64,000 bases of DNA, from positions 47,206 to 111,205 of the IMG/VR virus record IMGVR_UViG_3300032323_003835; one strand, 5' to 3'. Both the position numbers and the translations under genes were made by a program. This DNA is from a virus. Every line of letters starts with the position of its first letter. The first letter of the stretch is position 1. The notes under the pieces were generated by a model. The model had not been told where the DNA came from. It worked only from the letters and a program-made list of their open reading frames with translations, and made no database searches. Shown in pieces: positions 32,500-56,500 of this stretch.

Positions 32500-33380
32500 T
32501 TTTAAAATATCCGAATGGATAGGCCAGTCAGTGTGCGTACGCGCATTGGTAGACACTTACTACGTGCGCGGGTCCGTATCTAAATTATAATAACAAGCCG
32601 TACTTATACTATAATATGTCGTCATGAATATGACGCCCCGGTCATGTGCGTACGCGCATAGGTAGGGTCAGGTCTCCTGCAAAAGAAAAACGGAAAGGAA
32701 GAAGGGACCCCCTGCGGAAACCCTAGTTCTATATTTTAAAGTATCATCTCAAGAACTATATCTTTAAAAAACATTAAAAATGAGCATATACGGCCCCCCT
32801 TTTTTACCCCCCTAAAAGCCCCACTTTTACCCCCCTATTTTAGGGCCCTTTTTAGGCCCCGTTCCCCCCAGGCTCCCCTAGGGCTAAATAATGGGCCTTT
32901 TTGGTGGGCCCGCCCCGGGGATCTAATAGGGGTTTTTCACATCCTTTTTTAGGTGTGAGTCCTCCCCTTACTATAGAAAGGATTTACAAGCCGGTGGGGG
33001 CACCCCGAATTGGAATTCTAGGAATTTCCCTTTTTCCTACTTTTTCCGCGGGGGCACCCCGAACTGATATAAATAGGAATTCCCTGTTTTTTAAACTTCA
33101 TGCTTTTTTGAGTGAGCCCGCCCTCGGTGTAAGATAAACTCAAATTTCCAACTGTATGGTTTTTGAGTGAGGGCGCCTACTATAGTAATTACCTATTTTT
33201 CCCTTTTTCCATTTTCCCCGTGGGGGCACCCCGATTTGAAAAACCACAAAAATGGGTTTATTTGGTTTTTTTGGAAACTTAAGGTTTTCCATGTGGAGGT
33301 GCCCTCTCCACGATAGCCTATAAGTTTGATTCTAAACCTTACCCCATAAAAAAACCTTCCAATTTCTTGGAAGGCTTCTC
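32500..33380. other. GC-rich non-coding left boundary of the cassette block
   Basis: No credible ORF; C/G homopolymer runs at 32793-32935; direct repeat TGTGCGTACGCGCAT at 32532 and 32645; six 16-bp palindromes at 32994-33308. Confidence 0.7.
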
Positions 33381-33577
33381 GTTAACTCAACACTTATTAA
33401 CTAACCACAAACACTATTTTCTTTCTATTCTTTTTCTGGCTCTTTCTTTCGGTCTGGGATGGGTATTGATTTTACCACATGAGCAAACACTTGATTTATA
33501 TTCCTCGTTCCGTTTGAACATGATTGTGTAACCATGCCTACATGCGGAGCAGATAACGTACTTGTCTCTTAGTCCTG

Positions 33578-33823
33578 TCATCTTAGAGATTTTTCTCCTT
33601 TAACCCAATCCTCCATTGTCTTATAACTCCAGTAGGTTGTTTCTCCATCTCTTGATCTTTCGCTGTAGAAATTTTCAAATATGTATTCCCACACTTTCTT
33701 ATATGAGGAGGCTTTAAATTCCCAGAGGAAGTAAGCCGTGCCTATGAGTAGGAAGGCTAATAACTTCCATACTAGATAAGCATAACCGAGGATGTATTTT
33801 AATACTTCAAAAATCCATTTCAT
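33578..33823 (-). CDS. Small membrane protein
   Basis: Hydrophobic N-terminal half; own promoter motif upstream. Confidence 0.6.
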   Translation of the reverse strand: MKWIFEVLKYILGYAYLVWKLLAFLLIGTAYFLWEFKASSYKKVWEYIFENFYSERSRDGETTYWSYKTMEDWVKGEKSLR

Positions 33824-33868
33824 GTCCTTGTGTTTTATAAGGTAAATGTAAGTCTTTTCCTCGTGTAA

Positions 33869-34072
33869 TTAAAACGTCTGAGGACCGTTTTTTCTACGGA
33901 AGGGTTTGAATCCGTTGGCTTCAATTGCTATCTTAATACAACCCCATGCCACAATGGCTAGGCTTCCTACAGCCATCGATAGGGTTGGGTGTTCTAGATA
34001 TAACACGTAACAGAAAATTAAAGTGGCTGCAAGGTAAAGTACCGATCCGATAATAAAAGTTGTTTTTGTCAT
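33869..34072 (-). CDS. Small two-TM membrane protein
   Basis: Two hydrophobic segments; promoter motif upstream. Confidence 0.6.
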   Translation of the reverse strand: MTKTTFIIGSVLYLAATLIFCYVLYLEHPTLSMAVGSLAIVAWGCIKIAIEANGFKPFRRKNGPQTF

Positions 34073-34148
34073 AGTGGGGTTATTTGATTATGAAGCTAAA
34101 TTAAATAAAACCCGCGGAAGTAAAAAATGTTTCCGCGGGTTGGTGTGA

Positions 34149-34313
34149 TTAACCTCCTTTAAGAATAAGTTCTATTCTAGCAGGGATTACCTTTTCTGCA
34201 TTACATTCGTCGCAGCACTCTTCATCCTCCTCACCTAGATTTCCTAGCGGTTCTGGGTTGTTCCCGAATCCTTCTACTTCCTTGTCGCAAAGACAGCATT
34301 TAAACTTTTCCAT
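34149..34313 (-). CDS. Small zinc-finger protein
   Basis: CCLC...GNNPEP...CCDECN; start at 34313 after an ACACAC leader. Confidence 0.7.
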   Translation of the reverse strand: MEKFKCCLCDKEVEGFGNNPEPLGNLGEEDEECCDECNAEKVIPARIELILKGG

Positions 34314-34552
34314 GTGTGTGTTTTTAAGTGTGAGGTAAAAGTATGAATAATCCGCGAAAGAAAAAAATGTGCATGGAAAGAATTCCAAGAATTCCAGTGA
34401 GGGCGCCTTTACAAGGATAATCCAAAAAATCCAAACTTTGGTTTTTTCCGTGGGGGTGCTCTCACGCGGTTTAGCTAAGATTTAGCTTTCACTTGCCACA
34501 AAAAAAACCTTGGAAAATTCCAAGGTTTTTAAAAAGCATGTAATACTAGTTA

Positions 34553-34945
34553 TTACATTTTCCAAATACTATCTAATAAAGCTTCTTTAAAATCTTTATA
34601 GGTTTCTATATTTACACGCATTTGCATAAATTCATATTCATGATTATCAAAATCTGCAACAACTAATCTATAGTATTTTTCTTCAGGTGTTAACAGGTAT
34701 GCACAAGGACAATTTTGATAATACACAATTGCTAGTACACACATAGGTTGTACATTTTCAAAATTATCAAGGTTTTCTGCATAACCTGATTTTTTCCATT
34801 TTTCACTTTCACTAGGATTTTCCCAAATTAGCATTAAATATTCGCTATCAGAATCATCAATTGATAATTTGTAATCTTTCATTTTAGAATCTTTTGCTAG
34901 TGATTCAAGCATTTTTTCTGTGAAATCTTTTAATAGTGCTTTCAT
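34553..34945 (-). CDS. Hypothetical protein
   Basis: Single-gene cassette with promoter and terminator. Confidence 0.7.
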   Translation of the reverse strand: MKALLKDFTEKMLESLAKDSKMKDYKLSIDDSDSEYLMLIWENPSESEKWKKSGYAENLDNFENVQPMCVLAIVYYQNCPCAYLLTPEEKYYRLVVADFDNHEYEFMQMRVNIETYKDFKEALLDSIWKM

Positions 34946-35185
34946 GTGTTTGTGTGTTTAAGTACATATAAATATAAGCATTTTCCCCGAAAATTAAAAA
35001 TGCCCCGTAAAATAAATTCAAGCTATACACTTACCCGTGAGGGCGCCTTTACGATGATAATCCAAAAAATCCAAATTTTGGTTTTTTCTCCGAGGGTGCC
35101 CTCACTAACAGTTAATGGAATTTTTCAAGAAAGCTATCCCCACAAAAAAAGTCCCTAAGGACTTTTTTAAATCTGTGAGTTTGGA

Positions 35186-35362
35186 TTAAACCCTTACCTT
35201 CCTTAGTTTTGAAACTGCTGCTTTTAAAAAGGTAAAGATTATGTAAACAACTGTTCCGTAAAACAGAGCTACACATAAACCCCAAAATGAAAATGCTGCT
35301 TTTTCTACTCCATCTAAAGATTGGAATAAGTTTAATGCTTCGGTGAATTTTTCTGATAACAT
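35186..35362 (-). CDS. Small membrane protein (58 aa)
   Basis: Read by eye: MLSEKFTEALNLFQSLDGVEKAAFSFWGLCVALFYG...; flanked by promoter and terminator. Confidence 0.6.
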   Translation of the reverse strand: MLSEKFTEALNLFQSLDGVEKAAFSFWGLCVALFYGTVVYIIFTFLKAAVSKLRKVRV

Positions 35363-35672
35363 GTCGTGTTTTTTTAGTGATTAATTACAAGGCAAATATA
35401 GGATATTTCCCCGAAATAAAAAAATGTATTTGAGGTTAATTATACAAAATACCTCATTTCGGGGTGCCCTCTCCGATTGATGTGTTTTTGATGTATTTGC
35501 GTAACTCATTAGTTATTAACATGTTAACTCAGTTGGGGGCGGACTCACTAGAGTTACGCATAGGGAAGATTAGGGAAAATACCCCTTCGCGAGCGCGGGG
35601 TCCTCTCCCCCTCCCCTCCACAAAAAAAAGTCTGAGATTGCTCTCAGACTCTTTGTTTCCTCTTTCTTTTGC

Positions 35673-35891
35673 TTAGAAGTACTTTCTTCTTACATGCTTT
35701 GGTGTTCCTGGAGGTCCTATGGATTCTCCCCCTGCATCTAGAAACATAAACCCTTTATATGAATCGCTTCGCATTAGAACATGCTCCAGTACACAAATCA
35801 TGCCTTGCTTTTCATCTAAGGTGTTTCCATCGTTAGCGAGTTGCTCATTAACGAATGCCTTTATCCTTTCTATCTCAAAAGTCTTTCTCAT
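35673..35891 (-). CDS. Hypothetical protein
   Basis: 72-aa ORF ending at a terminator. Confidence 0.6.
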   Translation of the reverse strand: MRKTFEIERIKAFVNEQLANDGNTLDEKQGMICVLEHVLMRSDSYKGFMFLDAGGESIGPPGTPKHVRRKYF

Positions 35892-35893
35892 GC

Positions 35894-36070
35894 CTAATCT
35901 TTTAAAGCCATTTGTTTAGCTACTAGAACCTTAGCGTAATGTTCCCAGTTAATGTTATCTGTTTGTAAACCTTCTTGTTCCATCTTACATCTTCGAATTT
36001 GTACCAGAAGAGGAAGATTGATAACTGAATCTCTTGTAATGTAATTGAGAATGTTTTCGAATTGAATCAT
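35894..36070 (-). CDS. Hypothetical protein
   Basis: Start taken at MIQFE (36070), below the promoter. Confidence 0.55.
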   Translation of the reverse strand: MIQFENILNYITRDSVINLPLLVQIRRCKMEQEGLQTDNINWEHYAKVLVAKQMALKD

Positions 36071-36224
36071 GACGTTGTGTATTAGTATGAGGCTAATGTA
36101 AACCATTTCCGCGACAAATAAAAATGTGGAAGGAAAGAATCCCAAACACGGATCCACCGTGGTGAGGGCACGCCCACAAAAAACCTCCGGTTGGAGGTTT
36201 CTTTTCTTTTTATGTTCCTATGAC

Positions 36225-36590
36225 TTAGTAGTATTTCTCCTGGCTCATTCTACGAAGAGCATTATAAAGTAATACTGCTTCTTCCTCTATATTATGTAAG
36301 TCTAATACATTACCTCTGTACATAATCTCTGGTGCATTCTTATCAACTGTTACGGATGTGTTAAGAACGCTAGCTACTATTACACCAGGTTTAATTTCTC
36401 TTACGTTACTTACATAACCATACATATCTGAGCTACCAATAGCTTTATGAATGGAACGTAGTGACTTGCGATCTTCCTCGTTTTCATATCCCATTGCGTG
36501 TTTAGCTCCCTTTGCTAATCTAGAAAACAAGCCTTCAGGCTTTCTCATTGGACCTTCTTGGAAGTTTTCATATATCTGAAGATGTTTCAT
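36225..36590 (-). CDS. Hypothetical protein with MKHLQIYE N-terminus
   Basis: GGATATATAAA upstream; lies between palindromes. Confidence 0.7.
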   Translation of the reverse strand: MKHLQIYENFQEGPMRKPEGLFSRLAKGAKHAMGYENEEDRKSLRSIHKAIGSSDMYGYVSNVREIKPGVIVASVLNTSVTVDKNAPEIMYRGNVLDLHNIEEEAVLLYNALRRMSQEKYY

Positions 36591-36797
36591 GCTCCTATTG
36601 TTTTCATTTATATATCCAAACCAACATCCGCAAACCGGGTGAGGGCGCCTTTCCGAGGATAATCCGAAAATTCCATTTTTTCTCCTTCTTCCGTCGAGGC
36701 GTCCTCACCCCGCTTAGCTAAGGTTAAGCTGAAGTAATCCCACAAAAAAACTCAGGACAAAGTCCTGAGTCTTTAATAGTTTAAACTTTAACCCAAT

Positions 36798-37088: not shown

Positions 37089-37547
37089 ATGTGTGGTTTT
37101 AGAATACAAATATAACATGGACGTGCGGGGAATAAAAATGCAAAAACCCCCTTCGCGAGCGCGGGGTCCTCTCCCCCTCCCCTCTGTGTGTATTCTATCG
37201 GGAATGAGAATCAAAACATTATTATCGAGGTGAGGGCACCCTCGGATGATTTCCAAATCCGATCAAAAGGTTATATCTCTATGTGGTTGCGCCCTCACCT
37301 CGATTACGCTAGCGTAAAGTGCTTTCCACCGCGCACAAAAATGGCCTGAGATAAAATCCCAGGCCATTCTCGATTAGTTTAATCTATTGATGTTGGAGAT
37401 AACTATTTCGCCAACTTCATTCTTTAGGGTTTCCCAATCCTCTGGGGCTAGTGCATCCTCGATGCCTATTCCTTCCAACAGACTTATTAGGTCTTCCTGC
37501 ATTTGTTCTTTTAATTCTTGGATACTCATACATTTTTATTGAAGATT

Positions 37548-38512: not shown

Positions 38513-38730
38513 TATCTGAGTTATTTTGTGATTTATATATCTTTCCAAATATAGGTAACCTGGGCGAAATATAAAAATGCCCCGTGGAAAATCATGAAGC
38601 GATCGGTTAAGCGATTGCTAAGCGGCGTGAGGGCGCCCACTCTCTGTGTTACATCTGTTCCCTTCCAAAGGCCACAAAAAAAAATCTAGACGAATTTGTC
38701 TAGATTTTGAATTTTAAAATGAAGATGAGA

Positions 38731-38913: not shown

Positions 38914-39103
38914 ATTATATGTGTGTTTAAATACAAGGCAAATATAGAATAAATCCTCGGGATAAAAAAATGTATGAATTCGGACATCTACGGATCATTA
39001 TCGGGGTGTGGGTGCCCTCACCATCTCTTTCTGACTTATATCTTTCGATTTTCCATCGTACGCGTGCGGGGTCCTTCCCCTAGCCCCCTACGGGATAAAA
39101 GGA

Positions 39104-39289: not shown

Positions 39290-39540
39290 AATTCTATGTA
39301 TCCCAAATTCGATTCTAAGCATCGTGAGGGCACCGTGCCCTCACGGAGCCGTTTAACATTTTGTTTAATCTTTTAAACAGAAGGCCCGAACAATACTCTA
39401 ACAATATAAATTCATTCTCTGCGTGAGGGCGCCCACTCGCTGTGTTACGTCGTCCCTCGCTAGAGTTTTACCCACAAAAAAACCCAGACCTAAGTCTGGG
39501 CTTTTAAATCTGTTTGGGATTTAGAAGTGTTTAAGCAATT

Positions 39541-39825: not shown

Positions 39826-40040
39826 GTGAGTGTGTGTTTAAGTATAAAGCAAATATAAGAAAAAGAGGCGTAATAAAAAAATGCCTCGAAAATAAATTTG
39901 AAAGTTAGTGTCACAAAAAACACGCTAACATCGGTGAGGGTGCCCCGACTGGTTTTAGCATGGCGTTTACATCTTTGGGTTTGACCCATAAAAAAAAGTC
40001 CTAGAAAATCTAGGACTTTTTGGTTTAATAGGTTTTCTTA

Positions 40041-40310
40041 TTATCCAAAAACCAATTGGCCAACTTGAATACTTCTCCAAGCGAACTTTTCCAAATCATA
40101 GAATGGAAGAATTTTGGGAGAAGCCTCGTTTCCAGATTTAGGTTGTTGGTCTGCTGGAATATTAGACATGTCTAAAGTTCCATAGGCTAATCTTAACGAA
40201 CCATCTTTTTTTCGGAATGCGAAATTAACTGGTCCTGATTTTAATCTTTGTCTTAGGTCTTCAATTGATGATTCAGGAATTGAAGGACCGGGTGTCGTGT
40301 TTGTTAACAT
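40041..40310 (-). CDS. WYL_2/SH3-like beta-barrel protein
   Basis: VNFAFRKKDGSLRLAYGTL...FYDLEKFAWRS. Confidence 0.7.
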   Translation of the reverse strand: MLTNTTPGPSIPESSIEDLRQRLKSGPVNFAFRKKDGSLRLAYGTLDMSNIPADQQPKSGNEASPKILPFYDLEKFAWRSIQVGQLVFG

Positions 40311-40616
40311 GGTTATTTGTTTTTAAGTACGAGGTAAAATTAATAATAAACCTCGAAATAAAAAAATGTTTGGAATAATTTTTTTTCCACCCAAAACCTA
40401 GCTATGTTCACCTCGTGGACCGGCGTGAGGGCACCCTCGGATGATGTCTTTCGATTCCTCCTCCCGAATTTCGGCTGGAGGACCGATGTATCCGATTACG
40501 AGGGCGCCCCGACTCAACACTACGTGCAGATGTTTGGAAGAGTAAGTCCACAAAAAAACCTAGAACTTTTGGTTCCAGGTTTGGCTGTGTTTTACTTCCA
40601 GGTTTGGCAGATTTCC

Positions 40617-40892
40617 CTATTCAATCACTGCTGATATACCAGCATCAGTTAGGGCTTCTTTCATGGGTTGTAATTTGGTTTTACTTCCTGATTTAACTTG
40701 GCATTTACCTTTCGTATGAATCAATAAAGCGCACTGTTCTGCTTGTTCTGGTGTATGCTTAAGATAATTACATAGACAAGTTATGACCCAGTCAAACGTG
40801 TTAAAATCATCGTTATACACGATTAATTTGGATTCAATGAAGTCTTCTACTGAGACATCTGATAATTCTACTTCATCTAATTGAGTTGACAT
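40617..40892 (-). CDS. clpS: ATP-dependent Clp protease adaptor ClpS
   Basis: LIVYNDDFNTFDWV...EQAEQCALLIHTKGKC. Confidence 0.88.
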   Translation of the reverse strand: MSTQLDEVELSDVSVEDFIESKLIVYNDDFNTFDWVITCLCNYLKHTPEQAEQCALLIHTKGKCQVKSGSKTKLQPMKEALTDAGISAVIE

Positions 40893-40984
40893 ATACATAT
40901 TTATTTGAGAAAGCAAATATAGGATTATATCGCGGAAAATTAAAATGTTTCCCTCGTACGCGTGCGGGGTCCTCCCACCATCCC

Positions 40985-41452
40985 CTAGAACAAAATACTC
41001 AGTGCCTTTGCTGTATCCTTCTCCTGTTGCTGAGGAGTTGGCGTGTCCTGGGGTAGATTTAGATATTCCTTAAGTATACCCCAATCTTTAGATCCAACAT
41101 TAGGAATAGTGATTAGCATAGGTAGCATATCTTCGTGGCTACATCTAAGGTAATCTAATTCCTTCTCCCTCATATAACCAATAATAAATGCCGATATCTT
41201 TTCACTTAGGCAGTTGTCGATTGAGAACTTAGCTCCATAATGATGTTTCCAAAAATCCTCTCTCTTATCAGAGGAGTGTAGTTTTAGTCCTAACGTGGAT
41301 GCTACCTTGCTTATCTGTTTACTGGTTGTCCTAGAATACTTACCTCTTGCTTGGATGTGACCGTCTTTGATATCAGCAACATGTGTTTCATAACTGATAA
41401 CCTTATTACCTTGTAGGAATATGTTGTTACCTAATTTAAAATTTAGTTGCAT
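40985..41452 (-). CDS. Hypothetical protein
   Basis: SYETHVA...YSRTTSKQ motif. Confidence 0.65.
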   Translation of the reverse strand: MQLNFKLGNNIFLQGNKVISYETHVADIKDGHIQARGKYSRTTSKQISKVASTLGLKLHSSDKREDFWKHHYGAKFSIDNCLSEKISAFIIGYMREKELDYLRCSHEDMLPMLITIPNVGSKDWGILKEYLNLPQDTPTPQQQEKDTAKALSILF

Positions 41453-41454
41453 GA

Positions 41455-41646
41455 TTAGAAGTTTATCGGGTTAGGATAAGGAGTAGTTGTGGTCATCCAT
41501 TCACAATTTGTTAAAGAGTAATCTAGCATCTCTTCGATGAATTCATGTGCGTCGTCGCTTGGATTCATGTCATGTAAAGATAGGATATCAACCTTACCCG
41601 TTTCGAAGTTAAGGATAACTGCATACGATGTTTTTTGTGTACTCAT
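41455..41646 (-). CDS. Hypothetical protein
   Basis: First gene below a promoter. Confidence 0.6.
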   Translation of the reverse strand: MSTQKTSYAVILNFETGKVDILSLHDMNPSDDAHEFIEEMLDYSLTNCEWMTTTTPYPNPINF

Positions 41647-41831
41647 GTCGTGTTTATTTTATGATGTAAATATATGAAAATGAGGCGGAAAGAAAAAATG
41701 TCCTCGGAAGTATTCATGAATGCAGATAGACTGCACACTTAGGAGTGAGGGCGCCCTGACGATAGACCACAGTTTCTATTTGGATTCCTCCACACACAAA
41801 AAACCCTTACCATTTCTGATAAGGGATTTTA

Positions 41832-42776
41832 CTATATTTTTTCTAGAACTATTCCTGTTTGGTATAAAGGTATCTGTGATGCGCTTGGGTTCTGTTTGGG
41901 ATAGGATAGCATAAAGACTGTTTGGGGTATATGCTTATGTATAAAGGATCCATAATATTTAAGCTCATCGGTTGCCCCTAATATTTCGTCTATTACCATC
42001 TTGTGCAATAAATATGGTTGTCCCCCTTGTACCATATCTTTAATTAGGATTACCATCTTAGCACCCTTCCCCATAAAAGGTATGCATTGTATATACATCG
42101 TTCTTATTAAATCCCAAAACTCTTCACCTTTTTGCAATCCAAAGTTTTCGTTATTTTGGTAATTAAAAGTCTTTTCTGTTTTTACTCCATCCTTTATTCT
42201 TAATGTTCTTTGAGGTGCATCTGATGAATATCCAGACGCCATTCTAGGATATGGGGTACCATTTAACACTAAAGATATCTGTCCATTTTTTATACCATTT
42301 CTCCCCAATATGTCGGTCAAATTTCTCGCATCACCATTCTCAAATATATTTTTTCCAGTAGCAGGATCTGTCAATCTCTTATATTGGTGTTTTATATTTG
42401 CTGATGATATCTGGGGGAATTCAAGTTCGATCCCTATCCCATTTCTCCCGTGATTTATAGATTCGACTATTGCTGTACCCGTTCCTACCGTAGGATCAAA
42501 TACCCAGTCACCCTCTTTGGTGAAATTTTGAATTGCCCATCTATATCCAAGAAAATGCCCAGGTGCAATATGTTTCTCTGCACTTGGATTGTAGTAATTA
42601 TTTCTTGCTAATTGGGAATAATATTTATCTATATCGGTATTGTATATTTCACCCAAGAAGTTTGTTCTACAATATTCGCACGTACAGTGATAATCCTGGG
42701 GTATCCTATCTCTAGACAGGAGTATCTCCGTTATATCAACATTACTGTCGTATTGATTTTTTAAATTTTTTAGCAT
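41832..42776 (-). CDS. Amino (N4C/N6A) DNA methyltransferase-like protein
   Basis: VFDPTVGTGT SAM motif, IGIEL, GDAR, and LNGTPY at the catalytic (T/N)PPY position. Confidence 0.65.
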   Translation of the reverse strand: MLKNLKNQYDSNVDITEILLSRDRIPQDYHCTCEYCRTNFLGEIYNTDIDKYYSQLARNNYYNPSAEKHIAPGHFLGYRWAIQNFTKEGDWVFDPTVGTGTAIVESINHGRNGIGIELEFPQISSANIKHQYKRLTDPATGKNIFENGDARNLTDILGRNGIKNGQISLVLNGTPYPRMASGYSSDAPQRTLRIKDGVKTEKTFNYQNNENFGLQKGEEFWDLIRTMYIQCIPFMGKGAKMVILIKDMVQGGQPYLLHKMVIDEILGATDELKYYGSFIHKHIPQTVFMLSYPKQNPSASQIPLYQTGIVLEKI

Positions 42777-43501
42777 CTTTTTTTGTTAACATTTATTATA
42801 GATATTAAATCATTTAAGATTTCTTTAGTTCCTGAAAAATTTCTTTTTCTTAATCTTTCTATATTACCAATCACAGTTTCGGGATTGTTGGACTCGTTTA
42901 TATATTTTATAATTTCATCCGAATCACACATGTTTAATAATTCAACATTGGCTTTTTTGTAATCATTCTTCCAGTCCCCTATTGATGATTTGAGTTGAAA
43001 TTCCTGAAGCCTCGTATTTTCTGTTACTGTAACGACGTTGCATTTTCTCGCTTCATCCATCAGGTTAAAAAATTCCTTCCAAAGCAAAGATGCCCCATTC
43101 TCATGTATATGTGTTAACACCTTGTATTGATTTTCCCTGTGTTCGTCAACACAGAATTTTTTTTCGTCCAATGACATTAACAGAACCCCAGAAGAGACAT
43201 AGAATGTTTCTTTATCATCTTCTATATTAACAAACTTTTTTGTTATGTTATGTATATGCTTTTGATATCCCTGTGTAAGATAATGTTCAAAATTGCCAAG
43301 ACTAAATGCTAATTTACTTGGTATGTTATTTTTCCAACAGTATTCCCACTTGTCTTCTTTTAATTCTATAAAGAGAGATTTTATTTGTTGAGTTTTTAAA
43401 ACGGGAAATCTGGGATCCTGATAATCCGCAAATTTATTAGATTCTTCTTCTGTACCAAAAATAAATTCGATAAAGTCTTTTGAAATTGATTGATTTTTCA
43501 T
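42770..43501 (-). CDS. Hypothetical protein coupled to the methyltransferase
   Basis: 243-aa ORF overlapping the methyltransferase start. Confidence 0.65.
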   Translation of the reverse strand: MKNQSISKDFIEFIFGTEEESNKFADYQDPRFPVLKTQQIKSLFIELKEDKWEYCWKNNIPSKLAFSLGNFEHYLTQGYQKHIHNITKKFVNIEDDKETFYVSSGVLLMSLDEKKFCVDEHRENQYKVLTHIHENGASLLWKEFFNLMDEARKCNVVTVTENTRLQEFQLKSSIGDWKNDYKKANVELLNMCDSDEIIKYINESNNPETVIGNIERLRKRNFSGTKEILNDLISIINVNKKRC

Positions 43502-43728
43502 GTCGTGTGTTTTTAATTATGATGTAAATATATGAAAACGGGGCGTAATAAAAAAATGTCCTCAGGATTTATAGAACCCATACCAATGTTTCCAAGAATT
43601 GATTCAGCCGTTAGTCAGGGCGCCCTCACCACACTATACGCTTTCCCTATGGAGGAAGAAACCTCCACACACAAAAAAGGCCAGACTAATCTGACCTTCC
43701 CTGTTTACTTACTAACACCTAACCTTCC

Positions 43729-44756: not shown

Positions 44757-45006
44757 TGTTAGGTTTTTATCTGTTAGTAAATTATAGTACGAATTTATAA
44801 CATTTCCGCGGGAATAAAAAATGTTATTCCCCTACAGGGGGAACATGGGGTACTTCAGGTACATGTGGAACATCTGGTACATACAACCGGTGAGGGCGCC
44901 CTGACGTGTTTTACGCCCAGCGTACATCACTAATTCTAGGGCATAAAAAAACCCCAGACTATAAGTCTGAGGTTTAAAACTAAAAATAAACAAAAACTAT
45001 CTCACA

Positions 45007-46048: not shown

Positions 46049-46320
46049 ATTCTATCTTTTTATAGGATAAAAATAAAGAATTTCCTCGGTGAATAAAAAT
46101 GTAATTCGATTTACACCCGTACGCGTGCGGGGTCCTTCCCATATCCCCTTCCTAATATGCAAAGCCAAACCTCCTTTAAATGCAAAGCCATATGCACACT
46201 GAGTCGGGGCGCCCTCGTGGTGTTTTTCGACAGTCAAGAATCGAAAACCTTAGGGCACGAAAAAGCCCTCCATTGCTGGTAGGGCGATTTCTGCTAACTG
46301 GGGGGAGTCAGCGAAGTGAC

Positions 46321-46518: not shown

Positions 46519-46565
46519 ACAATTGAATCTAATGATGAAATGATAACTATTATATCTTACACATT

Positions 46566-46892: not shown

Positions 46893-47496
46893 GTCGTGTA
46901 TTTTTATTTAAGGTAAATGTAATGATTTTCCGCGCGGATAAAAAATGAGAGGTATAAAAAAACCCAAGCTAATAGCTTGGGTATTTTTTTGAAAATGAAT
47001 TCACACGACTAAATTCACATTCGGTAATTGTTGCTGAAAGAATCCTCATTCGTTAAAGCAGATTACCCTTCATTGTTAGATGGTTACCCATCCTATTTTG
47101 AAGCTCTTATATTCCTGAAACAACTTGTACCAATAAGATGTTTCTGGGTTGTAAATATTGTTATGATTATGCTCCTTCATTATCTTTTACTGCTTTCTCT
47201 TTGGTTTGTTTCACCGGACGAGTAGCTTCTTTCCAAACACTTTTTGGAACGAATTTGTATCCACGATTCTTAACCATCAATTCAGCTTCGTCATCATTTA
47301 CTCTTCTGATATCATTTGCCTTTTGTACCGTCTTCATACTTCTTTAATTTGATTCTGAGTTTGTGATTTTCTCTACATAATAGTCTGTTACGACATTTTA
47401 GTTTCATGGTTTCTTTACCAGAAATAACAAGAGAAATCAGAAGAACCAATATTGCAAGGCCGGCGCTGATTATTGGGAAAGCCATCTTTGGGATTT

Positions 47497-48222: not shown

Positions 48223-48307
48223 GGTGCAAAAGTAACGATCAGGTGCCGGTAATAAAAATGTAGACAGAAAACATCCGCGGAAGTATCCGCAGTGATGGTG
48301 AGGGCGC

Positions 48308-48808
48308 CTACTCCTCGGTCCAATGGAGAAACATCTGAACGACGTATTCATCTTCTCCACACACTAAAGGTTCTCTCCAATGTTCCAACGTCCGTCCAGC
48401 AACGAGGTTGCCCTCACCGGTTATCGTACGGAATTCGACATTGCCTTCCTCTCCTTTTACTATCAAAGGCCAATCATGTTTTAAATTAGTGAATAGACAA
48501 ACAGAAACTGTCCAATCTAAGCCATCGCGGTCTTTGTGTGGATGAAGTGTTGACTCATTATTGTATATGCGGCAATAGGGATTAGCTTCTTTTAATTTTC
48601 TACCACTTACTTCAGTTACGAGTGGTGTAAATCTTCTAAGACATTCCCAAGCACCGGGGGTGGATCCACCAAACGAATTCTTGTAATACTTGGTGTCTTT
48701 TTCTTCGACTATGGAACCACTTTTAAGGTGTTCAAAGACTTCCAGAGCAAGGTTCTCGCATTCTTCAGGTGATAGAATGCTTCCTAAATTGAAATATAGA
48801 TTGTTCAT
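48308..48808 (-). CDS. 2OG-Fe(II) oxygenase-like protein
   Basis: RIY...LHPHKDR (HxD), HWREPL, QMFLHW. Confidence 0.75.
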   Translation of the reverse strand: MNNLYFNLGSILSPEECENLALEVFEHLKSGSIVEEKDTKYYKNSFGGSTPGAWECLRRFTPLVTEVSGRKLKEANPYCRIYNNESTLHPHKDRDGLDWTVSVCLFTNLKHDWPLIVKGEEGNVEFRTITGEGNLVAGRTLEHWREPLVCGEDEYVVQMFLHWTEE

Positions 48809-49177
48809 GTGTGTTATAGACGTATTTACCTATATGTATTCACGTACGCGTGCGGGGTCCTTCCCATAGCCCCATACACAAAAAAGGCCAGCATTGCTGC
48901 TGGCCCGAGATTCCAAAGAATCTCCACACACACGTCTTTATTTATACGGAGGTTTAACTATAAGGGAAAGTAACACAAGATAGATGTGTTTGATCCAACC
49001 TCTAACGGTATTCTGCCTCTCGTAATTTTCATACTTCTTATTGTAGTAATCGTGATCTTTCATTGCCCTTGGATTTTTTTGGTTTAGGTTTAGGCTTAGG
49101 TTTTCTCACACTTCCCCCAGGAGTTCCCTTAACAACATCATAGTATCCCATATCTCTTATATTAAAAGGTTAAAAAA

Positions 49178-49931: not shown

Positions 49932-50406
49932 ATCGTGTGTGTTTTATGTTGTTCAAATATATGAAACTTTTTCGGGAGGAAAAAACGCGCACAAAAAAAG
50001 AGAGGAACCACCCTCTCTTTTATAACTTACTAACCCTAACCATTTAACTAAACACTGGCAAGTGTTTAATTCTATTGATCCCAAATGTAATCAATAGAAT
50101 CCGTAAATAAAAATTATTTGTCGTTCTTACTATTAATAATATCCGATGCTATCTTTAGCACGAAAGCAATAATACCGGCTGCGAAAGTTATCTTGATTAA
50201 AAAGACAACGACATCTACAAAATTTTCTACGCTCATGATTTTGATTTTACATTATATACCCATTCGGGAAAAAGATTTCAAGCCATATGGATAATCCGCG
50301 AGGGCGCCCCGACTGGGTTTGTACCGAGCGGTTTGGGTTCGATTCATTAGCCCACAAAAAAAGAGCCTCATCTTTCGATGAGACCCTCGGAACTTAAAAC
50401 CAAGTC

Positions 50407-50952: not shown

Positions 50953-51031
50953 GTGAGTTAAATTTTTATGGTTTTAAATTATTAACAAGGTAAATATATG
51001 ACCCAAATGCGGAAAGAAAAAATGTTTCCCA

Positions 51032-51520: not shown

Positions 51521-51739
51521 ATCGTGTGAGTTTTATAACAATGCTAAAGTAATAAAATGTTTCGAAAATAAAAAATGCCTCGGTGAAACATTTCAAAAAA
51601 GTTTCAGATGTTGGAAAGCGCCCAGCCAGCGGTCAGGGCGCCCTCACCAGAAATCCAGCCATATGGCGATTCTCTGTGGGAAAGGCCACAAAAAACCAGA
51701 CACTAGGTCTGGTTTTAAAGTTATAGAATTTGGATTTTA

Positions 51740-52306: not shown

Positions 52307-52769
52307 TTTTTTTTTATTTTATCTATATATCGATCGTGTTTCTTCTTTTTATTACTGTGCTAATATATGAAAAAATTCCGCGGGGAAAAAATGTGGGATC
52401 TAAAGATTCTAAAGGTTTTCATCCAGCCATTGGTGAGGGCGCCCTGACCAGAAATCCCGCCATATGGCGATTTCCTGTAGGAAAGGCCACAAAAAAATCC
52501 GAGGGATTAGTTCGGATTTTTAAGTGGGTACTTAGTTTTGGTTTTTCCTAGCTATTTTTTATATGAAAATAGATGCATGAATAAGACCTTCCCATCTCTT
52601 GGGCAATCACCTTGATTGCCTTTCCCTCACGTCTCTTCTCCTGAATCAATTCTCTTTGATAGTCAGTTAAGTTTCTTCCTCTCTCTTTCATTTCGGTTAA
52701 TTTGACTTAACATATCAATGGAACCCCAAATAGCAACAAAAGCTAGAAGTGCTAATGCTAAAATTGTTA

Positions 52770-53081
52770 TCATGGCTTAATAGTTGGATTATAACTGTGA
52801 CCTACTCTTTCGTAGGAAACTAAATTTTCCAGGGGTTTGAAAAGATGAAAACAACTCCTCTTGCTAGGATAGCCAAACTTGTCCTGGGTGAAAAGCTGAG
52901 TCTCTCCTTCATTAACAACATAGCTAGCGTTAACTGCTGGAATGGTAATGTGGGTAAATCGGTTCGGTGCTTTTCCCGCAGTGTTCCAAATCTCATACTC
53001 TCCAGACTGTAAGATTACCTCTGGCATCTTTACCGGATCTTCCTGGCTTAGATATTCTTTAAGTGTCATTCGTCGTCCCAA
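52770..53081 (-). CDS. Hypothetical protein
   Basis: Operon member. Confidence 0.5.
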   Translation of the reverse strand: MGRRMTLKEYLSQEDPVKMPEVILQSGEYEIWNTAGKAPNRFTHITIPAVNASYVVNEGETQLFTQDKFGYPSKRSCFHLFKPLENLVSYERVGHSYNPTIKP

Positions 53082-53320
53082 TTTAAAGAGTCAATAATTT
53101 CCATACCGTAAACATCACCCTGACTTCCAAATCCGAAATCACTTAGGTTGTTAATACGACATAGTAGTGTCTTGTAATCGTCCCAACCAACTTCCTCTCG
53201 GTTGTTAACGGCATCGCTCCAGGATTTCACCTTCTTATCAAAGATGTATTGGGCGTCTTCTAATTTTCCAAAGAGAGCATATGAATCTCCATCTGGATCC
53301 AGGTTAAAGATGATATACAT
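53066..53320 (-). CDS. Hypothetical protein
   Basis: Operon member. Confidence 0.55.
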   Translation of the reverse strand: MYIIFNLDPDGDSYALFGKLEDAQYIFDKKVKSWSDAVNNREEVGWDDYKTLLCRINNLSDFGFGSQGDVYGMEIIDSLNWDDE

Positions 53321-53324
53321 GGGC

Positions 53325-53531
53325 TTAGTATTTAATTGTGTCTAGAATCGAAAAGATATAGTGCGTTGCCCTATTCAAATCCCCTTCGGTTTCATTCACC
53401 CACATGGAGACTTCTTCAACGAGTTCTCCTAAGGTTTCGCAATTCATTAATGTACCCACGTACTCGGTTGAGTGCCCGCGTTCAGCTTCTACCGTAGCGA
53501 AGCTTTCGATGATGGTTTTTACTAGTGTCAT
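53325..53531 (-). CDS. Hypothetical protein
   Basis: Start at MTLVK (53531), below the promoter. Confidence 0.55.
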   Translation of the reverse strand: MTLVKTIIESFATVEAERGHSTEYVGTLMNCETLGELVEEVSMWVNETEGDLNRATHYIFSILDTIKY

Positions 53532-53601
53532 AATTGTCGTGTTTTTAATTACCAGACAAATATACAACCCATCCGCGGAAATTTAAAATGTGCCCGGAAA
53601 A

Positions 53602-53853
53602 TTAAAGGGAAGCTCCTAGTGGAATAACAGGAACGTCATAGGCACCAAATACCTTTTTGCGATAACGCTCGTAGATATGACCTTCACGTATAGATTTGGA
53701 TTCAAGGTCAATTAGAAAATAGGAATAAGCTCTATCGTTTTTAACGTCAGCAAAAAGTATCTTGCCTTCTTGCTTTAGAGGTACTTGAATTAATTTACCG
53801 AGTGGGCGTCGCCCAAAGTTAAGTAAACGGCTTCGAAGTTCTGAACTTGTCAT
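53602..53853 (-). CDS. Hypothetical protein
   Basis: 83-aa ORF. Confidence 0.5.
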   Translation of the reverse strand: MTSSELRSRLLNFGRRPLGKLIQVPLKQEGKILFADVKNDRAYSYFLIDLESKSIREGHIYERYRKKVFGAYDVPVIPLGASL

Positions 53854-53992
53854 TAAATTACTTTTTAGTTAAGAATTACATTGCTTCTAATCATTCCGCA
53901 AATATAACACTTATATTTTGGTATGTTCCTATGAGTTTCAAACTTTTTCATCATATGTTTAACTTTTTTCTAATTCCGTTAAACACATTTCT

Positions 53993-54208
53993 TTAAATCG
54001 CCCCAGTTTGTTCCTCATTCAGGGTTTGCCACTCATCAGGATGAGAGCTGTACTTTACTAGGGCTTGAACATAGAGAGCTCCATTAGAACTAAGTGAAAC
54101 TGCGGGTTGACCCCAGGGTTGCCAACCTTCATCAATGGCTAGGTTAACATCCTTCTCCAAGTCCGCCGCTGTGTAATTCGATTTGACTATTTTATATTCT
54201 GTTATCAT
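53993..54208 (-). CDS. DUF1737-like small protein
   Basis: YKIV...LEKDVNLAIDEGWQPWG...YVQALVK. Confidence 0.7.
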   Translation of the reverse strand: MITEYKIVKSNYTAADLEKDVNLAIDEGWQPWGQPAVSLSSNGALYVQALVKYSSHPDEWQTLNEEQTGAI

Positions 54209-54700
54209 TTACATCCAATAAGCTAGGACACCTCTTTTAATCACATATCCAATACTTAACTCCTCTAATGCCTTTAGGTCCTTAGCAAACTTCGTCTTGA
54301 GAATTTCCTCTGCTCCATCTAACTGAGGGAGTTTACTTATGATACCAAACCCGTTGTCTTCATAGTACTTACCCCATTTGCCACTTTTGTGAGGGATTAG
54401 AATCTTGTCTAGTTCTTCACATCCCCAACCAAATCCATTTGGCCAATTAAAGACGTCAGAGAATTCATGTTCGACATCTGCCATGTCCCAACGTTTCTCA
54501 GCCTTGAGCTTCTCTACTATGAGTTGAATAGGCTTGCCACATGAAGGACAGAACTTAGCTTTCGTGGTCAAGTACTCATGATCGCACTTCTTCTTGCAAT
54601 CGGGGGTAGAGAATCTTTCATTCTCGACTTCTTCCCAAACAATAGGGAGCTTTGTTACTTCTATATAAGCTCCAACATAAACCATTAAATCTTGTGACAT
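54209..54700 (-). CDS. Zinc-ribbon-containing hypothetical protein
   Basis: KFCPSCGKP. Confidence 0.6.
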   Translation of the reverse strand: MSQDLMVYVGAYIEVTKLPIVWEEVENERFSTPDCKKKCDHEYLTTKAKFCPSCGKPIQLIVEKLKAEKRWDMADVEHEFSDVFNWPNGFGWGCEELDKILIPHKSGKWGKYYEDNGFGIISKLPQLDGAEEILKTKFAKDLKALEELSIGYVIKRGVLAYWM

Positions 54701-54752
54701 ATGTGTGTTTTAGAAGGTAAAAGTAAAGCCCGTGGGCGGATTAAAAAAATGC

Positions 54753-55004
54753 CTAGAGAACTTCTCCCATTCGCTTGGGAATAATCTTATATGCCCAGGC
54801 CTCCTCAAAATCGTCTGCTAGCTCCTCCTCATCCTCACCTACCCAGTCCGCTTTGACTTGGTCATATAGATGCTCTTCCGAGTCCGCTCGCCAAAGACTA
54901 ACATTACTATCCTCGGTGTCTTCTTCATCTACTGAGATAACTGCCCAAAGGATTTTTCCTTCTCCGTGGGGTTGGCCCCAATCAAGGTTTAATCTAATTT
55001 CCAT
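54753..55004 (-). CDS. Acidic hypothetical protein
   Basis: Operon member. Confidence 0.55.
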   Translation of the reverse strand: MEIRLNLDWGQPHGEGKILWAVISVDEEDTEDSNVSLWRADSEEHLYDQVKADWVGEDEEELADDFEEAWAYKIIPKRMGEVL

Positions 55005-55186
55005 TGTTCTCTTAATTTAGTGGTGAAATGAATGATAGAGTCTAGGCTCTTATTAAGAGCTACTAGTTCTTTTACCTTTACGTCCTCAGGCAAGTCAGGT
55101 TGCATAAGGTTGTGTGTCTTCTCTAAGACTGTAGCGGAATGGTACTGGATTTTGGGTAGGTACCCGTGTTCATACTTTTTTGACAT
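54989..55186 (-). CDS. Hypothetical protein, first gene of the leftward cassette block
   Basis: Start at MSKKYE (55186), below a canonical promoter. Confidence 0.6.
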   Translation of the reverse strand: MSKKYEHGYLPKIQYHSATVLEKTHNLMQPDLPEDVKVKELVALNKSLDSIIHFTTKLREQWKLD

Positions 55187-55259
55187 GGTCGTGTGTGTTT
55201 TAATTACAAGGCAAATATAAGAATGAACCCCGCATAATAAAAATGTATCGGGGAAAATG

Positions 55260-56500
55260 CGGGAACAGGCCTCGCTCAGTGAGGGCGCCCACACATCCTT
55301 TTGGGTGCTAGCCAAAATGGATGTGTGAACGGGGATTTTTAGGAATTCCCCGCTGGTCATTTTTAGACTCCGTCGCTACTCAGTTTTAGACCCAGGATAT
55401 GGTCATGGGGTGAGGGCACCTCGGCTAAGAAAAGACGGGGAATTCCAAAGAGAATTCGTACCCCCGAAACTTTTTTATGAAACTTTTGTTACGGGTTCTT
55501 TTCGGGGAGAATCCAAGGTATATCCCCAGAAAGTGAGGGCGCCCCAACAGATTTTTGCCCATTTCGGTTTTTTCGCCCACTCCACAGGATTTCCCGTAGC
55601 ATACAGGGATTCTCTCAGAGGGAGGGAAGCGGGGAGCTCTCGGATACCTACCGGGGAGCACTCACCAAGAAATATAGGGCAATGCCCTGTATTTCTAGAT
55701 CTCTGAGTTAGATCCTTATATCTAGGATTAACTTCGTCGGGGCACCCTCGCAGACAATCGTTGACTCCCGCAACTATCCCTGTTCTCCCAGGGTTCTCCT
55801 GGTTCTTCCCAGACTTCCCAGAGGTCTAGGACTTAGTGGAAAGAATTCCTAGAAAATCTGGGTTATACTGGAAAGAATTCGTGAAGGCACCCCCGCATCT
55901 AAGTCCTTATTGGAAAAAATTTCGGGGCGGCTTCACCGAGAGAATTCAAGGATTACCGTGATAAATTTCGGTAGGGATCCAGGATACCATGCCCTATGGG
56001 GTCCCCCGGGGAGCCCCCTGTCCAAAACGCACGCAGAGGAGGGGGTTACTCAAGAGCACTTTTAGGGGTCTTCTAACGAGGTCTTCTCTAAGTCTGCCCA
56101 AGGGTGTCTTATATAGGGTTTTTTAATCGTACGGGTATTTTTTGACACTTTTCCCCACTTCTTACCACTTTGCCACACTATCCGCCTCGATATACGGGGT
56201 ATTATGTAAGATATCCAAGTAATGCCCTAGTCTGCCCCGTTCTACGCCTCAATACGGGGCGACTACAAGACTTTACGGGGCGAATCATAGTCTAATACGG
56301 GGCGAGAATTCGAGGCGTGCTATATGGTGTTTAAATGAGGGTAATAGAAGGATGGGATGCCACAAAAAGACCCCTTGAAAGGGGTCCTGGGTAAGACCCT
56401 ATTGCTAGGGTCTAGGTGATTTTGCTTCTTATATATCACGGCCATAGGCCTAGGCGTTGGAGCGGATTCTAGGGGCTTGATCCTGGATGGTCTAAGGGAG
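55260..56500. other. GC-rich non-coding right boundary of the cassette block
   Basis: About 1.2 kb without a credible ORF; six palindromes, G/C runs and TACGGGGCGA repeats; divergent transcription on either side. Confidence 0.7.
56193..56305 (+). repeat. Iteron-like direct repeats TACGGGG(CGA)
   Basis: Copies at 56193, 56253, 56274, 56296; an inverted partial copy at ~56234. Confidence 0.65.

Follow-up and report, generated by a model that had tools for sequence, protein, structure and literature searches.

A GC-rich near-palindrome of 16 bp, present in 43 copies and confined to a 23-kb array of small genes in an uncultured freshwater giant phage, occupies the junctions between successive transcription units, and we tentatively read it as a putative junction element bound by protein, in a cassette array that is hyperplastic and probably early. 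The window analysed is a stretch of 64,000 nucleotides (positions 47,206 to 111,205 of IMG/VR record IMGVR_UViG_3300032323_003835) from a 111-kb contig that CheckV rates as 33% complete, two thirds of the genome being missing; all positions given are those of the window.

Sites were called over the whole 111-kb contig with an iterated symmetric position matrix at a cut-off of at least 14 bits. This yielded 43 sites, compared with 0.8 in composition shuffles, all of them between 32904 and 55936, the remaining 88 kb being free of the motif, confirming that the roughly 39 copies counted in the initial annotation are real and that they are restricted to this region, with dense clusters at both of its ends (Table 1). 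The consensus consists of the halves GTGAGGGC and GCCCTCAC; as a single sequence, GTGAGGGCGCCCTCAC, it is matched 22 times at up to three mismatches, against 0.03 expected, and 35 times at up to four. Each site has the palindromic core GGGYRCCC, with a centre step that is always pyrimidine-purine (CG in 24, TG in 11 and CA in 8), and all 18 occurrences of GGCGCC in the 111 kb fall between 33172 and 55538. The flanks of the sites carry no information content, which suggests that selection acts on the 16 bp alone. The copies had been described as essentially all intergenic, and 41 of the 43 are indeed non-coding in an array whose sequence is about 67% coding (binomial P 6e-18); the two coding copies, at 48402 and 54966, are the weakest of the set. 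Genes lie between the repeats, whose spacings are between 40 and 2533 bp. A CRISPR array, which would have identical, regularly spaced repeats rather than degenerate ones, was ruled out, and the earlier view that the element is neither CRISPR nor the end of an insertion sequence is upheld.

Table 1. Positions of the cassette array, its 16-bp sites and associated junction elements
Feature	Position	Strand	Evidence
Cassette array, ~45 small genes, all minus strand, containing all motif copies	32904..55936	-	site and gene map
Downstream-end cluster, seven sites (32904, 32994, 33048, 33112, 33167, 33220, 33293)	32904..33308		matrix
Doublet, 53 bp; A/T-rich 37-bp linker, outer arms consensus, inner arms degenerate	34397..34465		family D10
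Doublet, 53 bp; linker family as at 34397, single long hairpin	35037..35105		fold, z -3.0 to -4.0
Two weaker sites (35458, 35533), 75 bp apart	35458..35548		matrix
Single site fused to terminator tail (TTTTTTGTGGGCGTGCCCTCAC)	36162..36177		junction map
Doublet, 54 bp	36639..36708		fold, z -3.6
Doublet, 53 bp; different linker with own inner hairpin	37230..37298		fold, z -4.8
Doublet, 54 bp	38076..38145		fold, z -2.3
Single site; terminator tail 29 nt before, promoter 47 nt after	38627..38642		distances
Single site; promoter 33 nt after	39006..39021		distances
Site pair, 99 bp apart; terminator precedes	39324..39438		matrix and distances
Single site; terminator 36 nt, promoter 50 nt	39934..39949		distances
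Doublet, 73 bp; inner hairpin	40425..40513		fold, z -3.0
Promoter example, conserved 34-nt type	41667..41700	-	repeat families D1-D6
Single site GTGAGGGCGCCCTGAC, left end of variable two-gene cassette	41745..41760		population joint
Variable 1869-bp cassette: promoter, 243-aa gene, MTase-like gene, terminator	41748..43616	-	run X2
Intrinsic terminator example, tail TTTTTTGTG(TGT)GG; site follows	41793..41825	-	junction map
Single site GTCAGGGCGCCCTCAC, right end of variable cassette	43614..43629		population joint
Single site; terminator tail 35 nt before	44890..44905		distances
Single site; terminator on one side, promoter at 46101 on other	46203..46218		junction map
Single site overlapping stop codon of gene 48308-48808; promoter 37 nt after	48298..48313		junction map
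Weak coding-region copy, 15.4 bits, doubtful standing	48402..48417		matrix
Single site; terminator tail 38 nt before	50298..50313		distances
Single site; tail 38 nt before, promoter 54 nt after	51632..51647		distances
Single site; tail 38 nt before, promoter 39 nt after	52433..52448		distances
Upstream-end cluster, six sites (55279, 55410, 55533, 55736, 55881, 55921)	55279..55936		matrix

The genes between the sites are ORFans together with ClpS-like, WYL_2, DUF1737, DUF6011, Zn-ribbon and MTase-like genes, and they are served by 29 copies of a 34-nt promoter with the consensus CATTTTT-N19/20-TAnnTTTG. Promoters of the TAnnTTTG type are those of Bacteroidota, and the phage host was assigned to this phylum on that basis. 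Host-type promoters of fixed 34-nt geometry, together with the scarcity of Shine-Dalgarno motifs (3 of 86 genes), fit a probably early region of a Bacteroidota phage, read by the host polymerase.

Read on the sense (minus) strand, a junction runs from the stop codon through an intrinsic terminator ending in TTTTTTGTGG, a gap of 29-39 nt, the site or sites and a gap of 27-56 nt to the 34-nt promoter and the next gene. Placement between one unit's terminator and the following promoter, as first proposed, is borne out by 17 of the 22 terminator tails in the region, each of which has a site 29-39 nt downstream, and terminator hairpins are enriched (32 versus 15.4 expected). The distance from terminator to site is tighter than that from site to promoter, and no helical phasing is apparent in the latter (27-56 nt), an unusual feature for an activator. 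Several sites have no adjoining promoter, including both end clusters; the upstream one sits in a 700-bp non-coding leader ahead of the first promoter of the array, and in the downstream one, where the GTGR arm is on the plus strand in most copies, the first spacing is 90 bp and the other five are 53-73 bp, corresponding to about five helical turns or more. Single sites are both the majority and the best conserved, scoring up to 27-28.6 bits as compared with 18-22 bits for members of doublets. Seven junctions carry a doublet, spaced by 53-54 bp (five helical turns) in five cases and by 73 and 99 bp in the others.

The initial annotation had described symmetric half-site variants and a palindrome of the type bound by dimeric proteins. 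Variants are present (GTCA, GTCG, GTGG and CCGA), but the symmetry does not hold, as none of the 43 sites is a perfect palindrome and the asymmetry is systematic, with no symmetric sites where 6.5 are expected (P 5e-5). GTGA, the consensus arm, is found in 31 sites and never twice in one, and every site joins one consensus arm to one deviating arm, in which it resembles natural operators. The consensus arm takes both orientations (21:10) in a region transcribed in one direction. Half-sites show no covariation (pair 4/13 is AT in 14, GC in 5, GT in 8 and AC in 10 sites), which makes a hairpin unlikely for single sites. With independent half-sites, about 5 of 8 positions complementary on average, no G-U excess on the sense strand and a pyrimidine-purine centre, recognition as duplex DNA is favoured over a hairpin; these marks and the 53-54-bp doublets sustain the protein-site part of the earlier proposal. 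Gene-facing arms are well kept while arms facing a neighbouring site are degenerate (P 1e-4 to 3e-4), and of 23 pairs of arms that face one another across a segment of genes, 8 are identical versus 3.8 expected (P 0.004), with a mean mismatch of 1.04 versus 1.57 (P 0.0003), all of these being post hoc statistics devised after inspection of the data. Neither this arm rule nor the fold-back of doublets is predicted by a simple operator model.

Multi-copy operators have precedents in the KorB OB sites of RK2 (PMC11790492) and the stoperators of cluster A mycobacteriophages (PMC9283540, PMC6550527), systems in which one protein controls many units, some from a distance, or stops elongation. The array resembles both in that a single 13-16-bp site recurs dozens of times in the short intergenic spaces of a mobile genome. 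Stoperators, however, have no symmetry and follow the direction of transcription, whereas the sites here are near-palindromic and lie in both orientations; moreover, they stand upstream of promoters rather than over them, and no ParB/KorB-like gene, repressor gene or other regulator gene for the site was found in the 111 kb. Sites of parS and KorB type are 13-16-bp palindromes read by an element-encoded protein of the ParB family; the 16-bp unit here is a near-palindrome, and a search for ParB_N over the 111 kb of this 33%-complete record gave no match. For the segregation or DNA-entry role once suggested, we found no evidence. No DNA-binding domain was detected in the approximately 40 array ORFs or the genes adjoining the array, the only hit being a sub-threshold HTH_3 match 20 kb away.

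In organization, the array is close to the PeSL cassettes of T4-type phages, in which modules of a terminator and a host-type early promoter punctuate hyperplastic ORFan regions and mark where close relatives differ by insertion, deletion or replacement (PMC2839356, PMC4122927). Here too a composite of terminator and host-type promoter is repeated between genes, the region is ORFan-rich and hyperplastic, and joints fall in promoters, terminator tails and sites. In PeSL, in contrast, the GC-rich dyad is itself the terminator, while here a separate canonical hairpin lies 29-39 nt upstream and an additional 16-bp near-palindrome with sequence-specific arms is placed between terminator and promoter. 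The promoter here, moreover, is of Bacteroidota type.

The motif is specific to its lineage. It is absent from relatives that have the same promoter grammar and neighbouring genes 77-81% identical, in which a compact fusion of terminator and promoter lacks the 16-bp element. The original description of an undescribed, region-confined cis element at cassette junctions is supported; the coating or organizing of the region proposed along with it is conjectural. That relatives with the same promoter manage without the element counts against the protein-binding reading, as do the lack of a DNA-binding domain in the array ORFs, the missing helical phasing and the sites with no adjoining promoter.

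In lake metagenomes, cassettes of the array are variably present. Most of the run X2 population lacks the variable cassette in Table 1 (depth 7-9 versus about 35), and the joint from 41747 to 43617 (depth 23) lies inside both flanking sites, which are exact reverse complements, shares 10 letters corresponding to the core and produces a perfect palindrome, the only one seen, although its shorter side comprises 25 letters at 80% likeness, a class that carries a tool warning. Gene-content breakpoints had been suggested as a check on the sites, and the outcome is partly positive: one indel has its two ends in two sites, but the ends of the remaining population joints lie within promoters, next to terminator tails or at stop codons, which fits general recombination between any repeated module.

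The cassette loss could also point to dedicated, site-specific recombination that exchanges cassettes in the manner of integrons or shufflons, with the core as crossover, arms owned by the cassettes and a hybrid at every junction; we consider this unlikely. Beyond the joint itself, it would explain the lack of symmetric sites, the lineage specificity of the motif, the alike arms across gene segments (the pattern expected if the two ends of a cassette bear an arm type particular to it) and the tighter distance to the preceding terminator, as of attC to its cassette. Shufflon sfx sites likewise have one conserved and one variable arm, and with attC and sfx the sites share imperfect inverted repeats at the cassette 3' end, hybrid junctions and presence or absence of cassettes. 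Against it stand the single joint of this kind with its short, imperfect side, the joints elsewhere, the post hoc nature of the arm statistics, the uniform orientation of all array genes and the lack of inversion joints among those listed in the population data. Integron cassettes, in addition, are promoterless and each end in attC, whereas those here have their own promoters and terminators, and no integrase or Rci-like gene, attI/Pc or inversion was seen. Neither tyrosine nor serine recombinases (Phage_integrase, Resolvase) nor a Y1 transposase matched in the 111 kb, a weak objection with two thirds of the genome unseen. Somewhat more doubtful still is the full form of this proposal, a lytic jumbo phage with its own cassette-exchange system, in which a recombinase would cross within the GGGYRCCC core between cassette-specific arms, producing hybrid junctions, and cassette loss would restore the perfect palindrome. 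If true, a virus would contain an integron- or shufflon-like engine that reassorts genes for early functions, host takeover and anti-defence.

Another reading, which we regard as improbable, is that the element functions once folded as single-stranded DNA or RNA, a stem-loop of REP/REPIN or PeSL type that attenuates read-through, stabilizes or processes transcripts, or is mobilized as a hairpin. REP, BIME and REPIN elements are lineage-specific, GC-rich extragenic palindromes that serve as join-points of recombination (PMC3116915, PMC2817692), and REPINs are inverted doublets at fixed spacing that fold into one hairpin (PMC3116915). The sites are similarly extragenic, imperfectly palindromic, over-represented, clustered and located just past the 3' ends of transcription units, and the inverted doublets have conserved outer arms and unrelated linkers that each have their own inner hairpin. 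In folds of six doublets the two sites pair with each other to give a single long hairpin, with z -2.3 to -4.8 in seven of the eight folds; G-tract/C-tract hairpins adjoining early promoters in the ORFan regions of PeSL provide a precedent (PMC2839356). Single sites, however, allow a stem of 6 bp at most, junction folds are inconsistent, the spacer shows no significant structure, and a separate canonical terminator precedes each site, so that the element would be transcribed by read-through only. It also differs from REP in its length (16 bp versus 20-40), in its confinement to 23 kb of a phage genome rather than all extragenic space and in having singlets better conserved than doublets, where REPIN singlets are decayed remnants; the consensus lacks GTAG, no target-site duplications are visible at doublets, and no RAYT or Y1 transposase (PF01797) was found in the 111 kb of the 33%-complete record.

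A target for a nuclease or DNA-modifying enzyme, whether a phage enzyme initiating nicking, replication or recombination or a decoy for host restriction, is very unlikely: GGYRCC, which is degenerate in the way that type II recognition sites often are, is present in every core, GCGC also figures in the core, GGCGCC occurs nowhere else in the contig, the centre is always CG or one of its products after methylation and deamination (TG, CA) and an MTase-like gene lies in the array, but the conserved 16 bp with specific arms exceed such recognition sites, that gene is common to relatives without the motif, no nuclease candidate was found and placement relative to terminators and promoters goes unexplained.

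Under the protein-binding reading, each site would be read on duplex DNA by a sequence-specific, probably dimeric protein, derived from the host or encoded by the phage, whether by one of the ORFans or in the two thirds of the genome that are missing. Nearly every junction would present one or two such sites, about 35 bp past the terminator and 30-55 bp ahead of the next promoter, itself probably read by host RNA polymerase. The bound protein may mark and insulate cassette boundaries and may switch many array promoters together, and cooperative higher-order complexes could form on the five-turn doublets and the end clusters. As short repeats at every junction, the sites may double as crossover points at which cassettes are added or removed, as the repeated promoters and terminators may. 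The element would most likely serve in this phage to dock a protein by which cassettes are insulated, co-regulated or reshuffled.

The 16-bp GC-rich near-palindrome that marks the cassette junctions (core GGGYRCCC, consensus arm GTGA) is real and far above chance expectation, with 22 matches at three or fewer mismatches compared to 0.03 expected. The initial annotation had counted about 39 copies; with a symmetric matrix, 43 sites score 14 bits or more, compared to 0.8 in composition shuffles. In a check of the whole contig, its claim of confinement also held, as all 43 sites lie in the array of roughly 45 small genes arranged in cassettes and none in the remaining 88 kb of the contig. Every one of the 18 occurrences of GGCGCC in the contig is likewise within the array. 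The sites are intergenic as described: coding sequence makes up approximately 67% of the array, yet just the two weakest sites reside in it (P = 6e-18). Scans of IMG/VR and 185,579 species genomes with the exact pattern GTSAGGGCGCCCTSAC yielded isolated single matches in high-GC DNA that are attributable to chance, a scan with GGGGGCACCCCGAA yielded no additional clusters, and a terminator-plus-core pattern gave noise only in IMG/VR. There was no match to the predicted empty-site junction, nor to 12 kb of the array in a megablast search of 50,697 phage records; three array proteins had no close relatives in IMG/VR, and a literature search with the motif strings returned nothing relevant.

All array genes are on the minus strand, and on this strand a junction reads from the stop codon through an intrinsic terminator hairpin with the tail TTTTTTGTGG, an unconserved spacer of 29-39 nt, the site or sites, a further 27-56 nt, a promoter, and an A-rich leader to the ATG. 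The placement of the motif between terminator and promoter was borne out, with 17 of the region's 22 terminator tails followed by a site. Seven junctions contain a second site, forming a doublet, 53-54 bp on in five cases and 73 and 99 bp on in the other two. Promoter geometry is fixed at 34 nt, CATTTTT-N19/20-TAnnTTTG; the array has 29 copies, and few lie outside it. Dense clusters at both array ends were also recovered, seven sites downstream, where five of the six spacings are 53-73 bp, and six sites upstream, in a 700-bp non-coding leader. Information is confined to the 16 bp, and the flanks carry none.

Several further observations concern the junctions. The promoters carry CG at positions 14-15, and in roughly half of the copies, pairing between positions 10-20 and the bases preceding CATTTTT leaves CATTTTT in a hairpin loop (-18 kcal/mol for the copy at 34129); in relatives, the promoter hairpin also acts as terminator for the gene upstream. 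No common structure emerged when the junctions were folded as RNA on both strands, and hairpins spotted by eye in the spacer fell short of significance (mean z -0.44, P = 0.09). The GTGG of the terminator tail was considered as a third half-site and dropped, as eight site-less terminators outside the array share the tail and the tail-to-site distance also varies by 10 bp. A second GC-rich repeat, GGGnnGGGAAGGACCCCGC(A/G)C(G/T)CG(TACG), is present in six copies, all in the array, usually directly after a stop codon or terminator. Coordinates are collected in the table.

Positions of the array and of features within and beside it
Feature	Position	Strand
HTH_3 frame	13334-13435	-
Promoter copies, full span	32433-55245	-
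Promoter copy, example	41667-41700	-
G-run stretch	32500-32870	-
TGCGCGTACGCACA copies	32532, 32645	
Array	32904-55936	-
Downstream-end site cluster	32904-33308	
Second GC-rich repeat	35590-35603	-
Second GC-rich repeat	37156-37169	-
Second GC-rich repeat	39061-39074	-
Second GC-rich repeat	40959-40972	-
Second GC-rich repeat	46122-46135	-
Second GC-rich repeat	48847-48860	-
WYL_2 protein gene	40041-40310	-
ClpS-like adaptor gene	40617-40916	-
MTase-like gene	41832-42776	
Low-complexity stretch	44840-44882	
Upstream-end site cluster	55279-55936	
TCGCCCCGTA direct repeats	56253-56305	-
117-aa protein gene	56534-56887	+

The core is intact in approximately 85% of copies, and the centre step is pyrimidine-purine in every copy (CG 24, TG 11, CA 8). 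Since the halves vary independently, with no pair showing covariation (pair 4/13: AT 14, GC 5, GT 8, AC 10), about 5 of 8 positions per site are complementary on average, and G-T pairs are not in excess on the sense strand, the sequences argue for duplex half-site recognition rather than a hairpin at single sites. Symmetric sites were unexpectedly lacking (0 of 43): the GTGA arm occurs in 31 of the 43 sites and never on both sides of one site, compared to 6.5 symmetric sites expected from random re-pairing of halves (P = 5e-5), and the best five copies all read GTGAGGGCGCCCTGAC on one strand or the other. In orientation and facing-arm tests devised post hoc, after inspection of the data, arms facing a gene-containing segment were near consensus (0.75 mismatches) compared to degenerate arms facing a site within 150 bp (1.63; P = 1e-4), and arm pairs across a gene segment were identical in 8 of 23 cases versus 3.8 expected by random flipping (P = 0.004), with a mean mismatch of 1.04 versus 1.57 (P = 0.0003). 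Within a doublet, the outer arms are those closer to consensus, and the two sites, taken as single strands, pair to form one long hairpin; of eight folds, from six doublets, seven had z of -2.3 to -4.8, the exception being the sense strand of the 34397 doublet (z -0.74). The doublet linkers are unrelated, yet each forms an inner hairpin. A MITE reading was unsupported, the doublet sequences having no visible target-site duplications.

The summed evidence is best fitted, tentatively, by a protein-binding site. This reading is suggested by the palindromic core with independently varying arms and flexible centre step, by the pairing of one strong with one weak arm as in natural operators, by doublets, and much of the downstream-end cluster, being spaced at five turns, and by the strict absence from coding DNA (the two weakest copies aside) with selection on the 16 bp alone. 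Because the sites separate each terminator from the promoter that follows, in an array read by the host polymerase, they would form a putative boundary or insulator, and a putative binder could act as a common switch for many array promoters. The operator sets of RK2 KorB (PMC11790492) and cluster A mycobacteriophages (PMC9283540) are alike in number and intergenic placement, but their orientation rule is unlike that of the array and no cognate protein was found here. Speaking against a simple operator are the unphased promoter distance, promoter-less sites, the orientation rules, the doublet fold-back, and the failure to find a DNA-binding domain.

The search for that domain covered about 40 array ORFs and the neighbouring genes and found none, and ParB, resolvase, integrase and RAYT families had no match in 111 kb of a 33% complete record, with two thirds of the genome outside it. 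The lone helix-turn-helix hint in the 111 kb was a 72-aa frame matching HTH_3 below threshold (21 bits, E = 4e-5), with no site nearby, 20 kb from the array. The sole plus-strand gene beside the array, divergent to it at the upstream end, encodes 117 aa starting MKHLRVFE; it is conserved in relatives, with values of 60-94% over ten protein clusters. It was set aside as a candidate binder, as its central NLPLDGN.KNPEY.KAF looks by eye more like a cell-wall-binding motif than a DNA-binding one.

The main rival to protein binding is dedicated site-specific recombination of cassettes at the sites, which we consider doubtful. Contigs of four lake metagenome runs (X1-X4) placed on 20 kb of the array differ in the presence or absence of cassettes. 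In X2, a joint linking 41747 to 43617 (depth 23) has both ends within sites (41745 and 43614), each the exact reverse complement of the other and sharing a 10-bp core; the joint's shorter side is just 25 letters at 80% likeness, a class that carries a warning from the tool. The 1869 bp between the two sites form a complete cassette of promoter, two genes and terminator, at depth 7-9 in X2 versus approximately 35 around it, and the joined form, GTGAGGGCGCCCTCAC, is the sole perfect palindrome seen. Other joints end in spacers directly after two terminator tails (40544 to 43658, seen in both X2 and X3, with a side of 43 and five filler letters), in two promoters (34343/35406; 37985/40323, run of another study), in stop-codon/terminator regions (51717/52537), or 6-8 nt from sites (36183/36631). 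The proposal that breakpoints fall at the sites thus stood for one joint and not for the others; because joints end in promoters, terminator regions, spacers and sites, breakpoints lie in repeated junction modules generally, and at least once in sites. Recombination by itself explains why sites are never symmetric, why arms match across cassettes, why sites are tied so tightly to the cassette 3' end, and how the site-to-site indel arose, but it rests on one modest joint and post-hoc statistics, with no recombinase found in 111 kb. That the array is a new cassette-exchange system is unlikely. Separately, a low-complexity stretch of the array draws many unrelated metagenome contigs continuing into (AGT/GGT/ACT)n repeats, and the depth of 300 in this bin is inflated by a mapping artefact.

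A hairpin or REPIN-like element, which we judge improbable, agrees with the doublets, but the better-conserved singlets do not fit. Like REP/REPIN sequences, the site is extragenic, imperfectly palindromic, lineage-specific and found in inverted doublets (PMC3116915); in contrast to REPINs, array doublets are not better conserved than singlets, the site is without GTAG, and the 111 kb has no RAYT match. A nuclease or modification target is very improbable, as GGYRCC and GCGC occur in every core but little of the junction grammar would be explained.

The MTase-like gene of the array has many homologues, and on metagenome contigs whose protein is 77-81% identical it is accompanied by the upstream 243-aa gene, with the promoter grammar unchanged. 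These contigs have the terminator hairpin joined directly to the CATTTTTTT promoter and lack the GC-rich palindrome. No comparable repeat was found among approximately 130 related loci, nor any motif copy in four distant jumbo relatives (538 kb total), a comparison that leaves out the closest relative, 94% identical (P0001, 17-kb contig), and the 322- and 343-kb relatives. Since relatives share the terminator-promoter junction but not the motif, the element is, on sequence comparison, a recent, lineage-specific addition to an older junction. An unrelated 64-kb phage contig of 43% G+C (L132, IMGVR_UViG_3300044984_000411; no shared proteins in 18 kb compared) carries six copies of GGGG(C/T)(G/A)CCCC at 13958-17664, in its last 4.4 kb, clustered among small ORFs at the contig end and flanked by conserved GCGACACGCC before and TAACG...TTTACGT after. 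Its variant GGGGGCACCCCGA(A/T) is the form seen in the downstream-end cluster here, and these repeats may be an analogous system.

Non-coding DNA borders the array on both sides. Just upstream, TCGCCCCGTA occurs as three direct repeats at 21-22 bp intervals, accompanied by a partial copy in inverted orientation; the set is iteron-like and may represent a replication origin or the site of a regulator. The 650-bp stretch at the downstream end contains five minus-strand runs of 5-6 G with A-tracts between them and two copies of TGCGCGTACGCACA, and may be bent or G-quadruplex-prone.

The source record is 111,205 bp, of which the window is the final 64 kb, with a CheckV completeness of 33% and a G+C content of approximately 36%. 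A tail collar domain, an endolysin-like gene and a Ro60/TROVE gene, the last nearest to its counterpart in Bacillus phage G, identify it as a phage, and it is probably a jumbo phage, since homologues of one array gene sit on 322-kb and 343-kb contigs. Seventeen studies contributed the 20 freshwater or lake metagenome runs in which parts of the array were detected. A Shine-Dalgarno-like core precedes just 3 of 86 genes, sigma-70 consensus promoters are not enriched, and the TAnnTTTG promoter end with rare Shine-Dalgarno sequences is what we take to be the Bacteroidota type; together these features point to a Bacteroidota host. Among the array genes are two plausible host-takeover genes, one for a ClpS-like protease adaptor (PF02617, E = 1e-16) and one for a WYL_2 protein (E = 3e-18). 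Rfam and tRNA scans over the window were empty.

Cassettes with PeSLs in T4-type phages combine a composite terminator-promoter motif, ORFan-rich hyperplastic regions and modular shuffling (PMC2839356, PMC4122927). This is the closest known concept and its logic is common to the array, which differs in having an extra sequence-specific element that PeSLs are without. Hyperplastic early-gene regions of phages store and exchange host-takeover and counter-defence genes, and to our knowledge little is known of how such regions are wired and reshuffled outside T4-type phages. The grammar here is unusually clean, a terminator, a specific 16-bp site and a promoter, with a lineage-specific site whose orientation rules are not predicted by simple operator models and, in at least one case, a natural gain or loss of a cassette that ends within sites. 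The promoter, terminator and site parts could become insulated expression modules for Bacteroidota. Under either reading, the 16-mer is a ready bait for the reader protein: if a protein reads the sites, it would serve about 45 genes as master switch or boundary factor, and if a recombinase does, the array would represent a new viral cassette-capture system.
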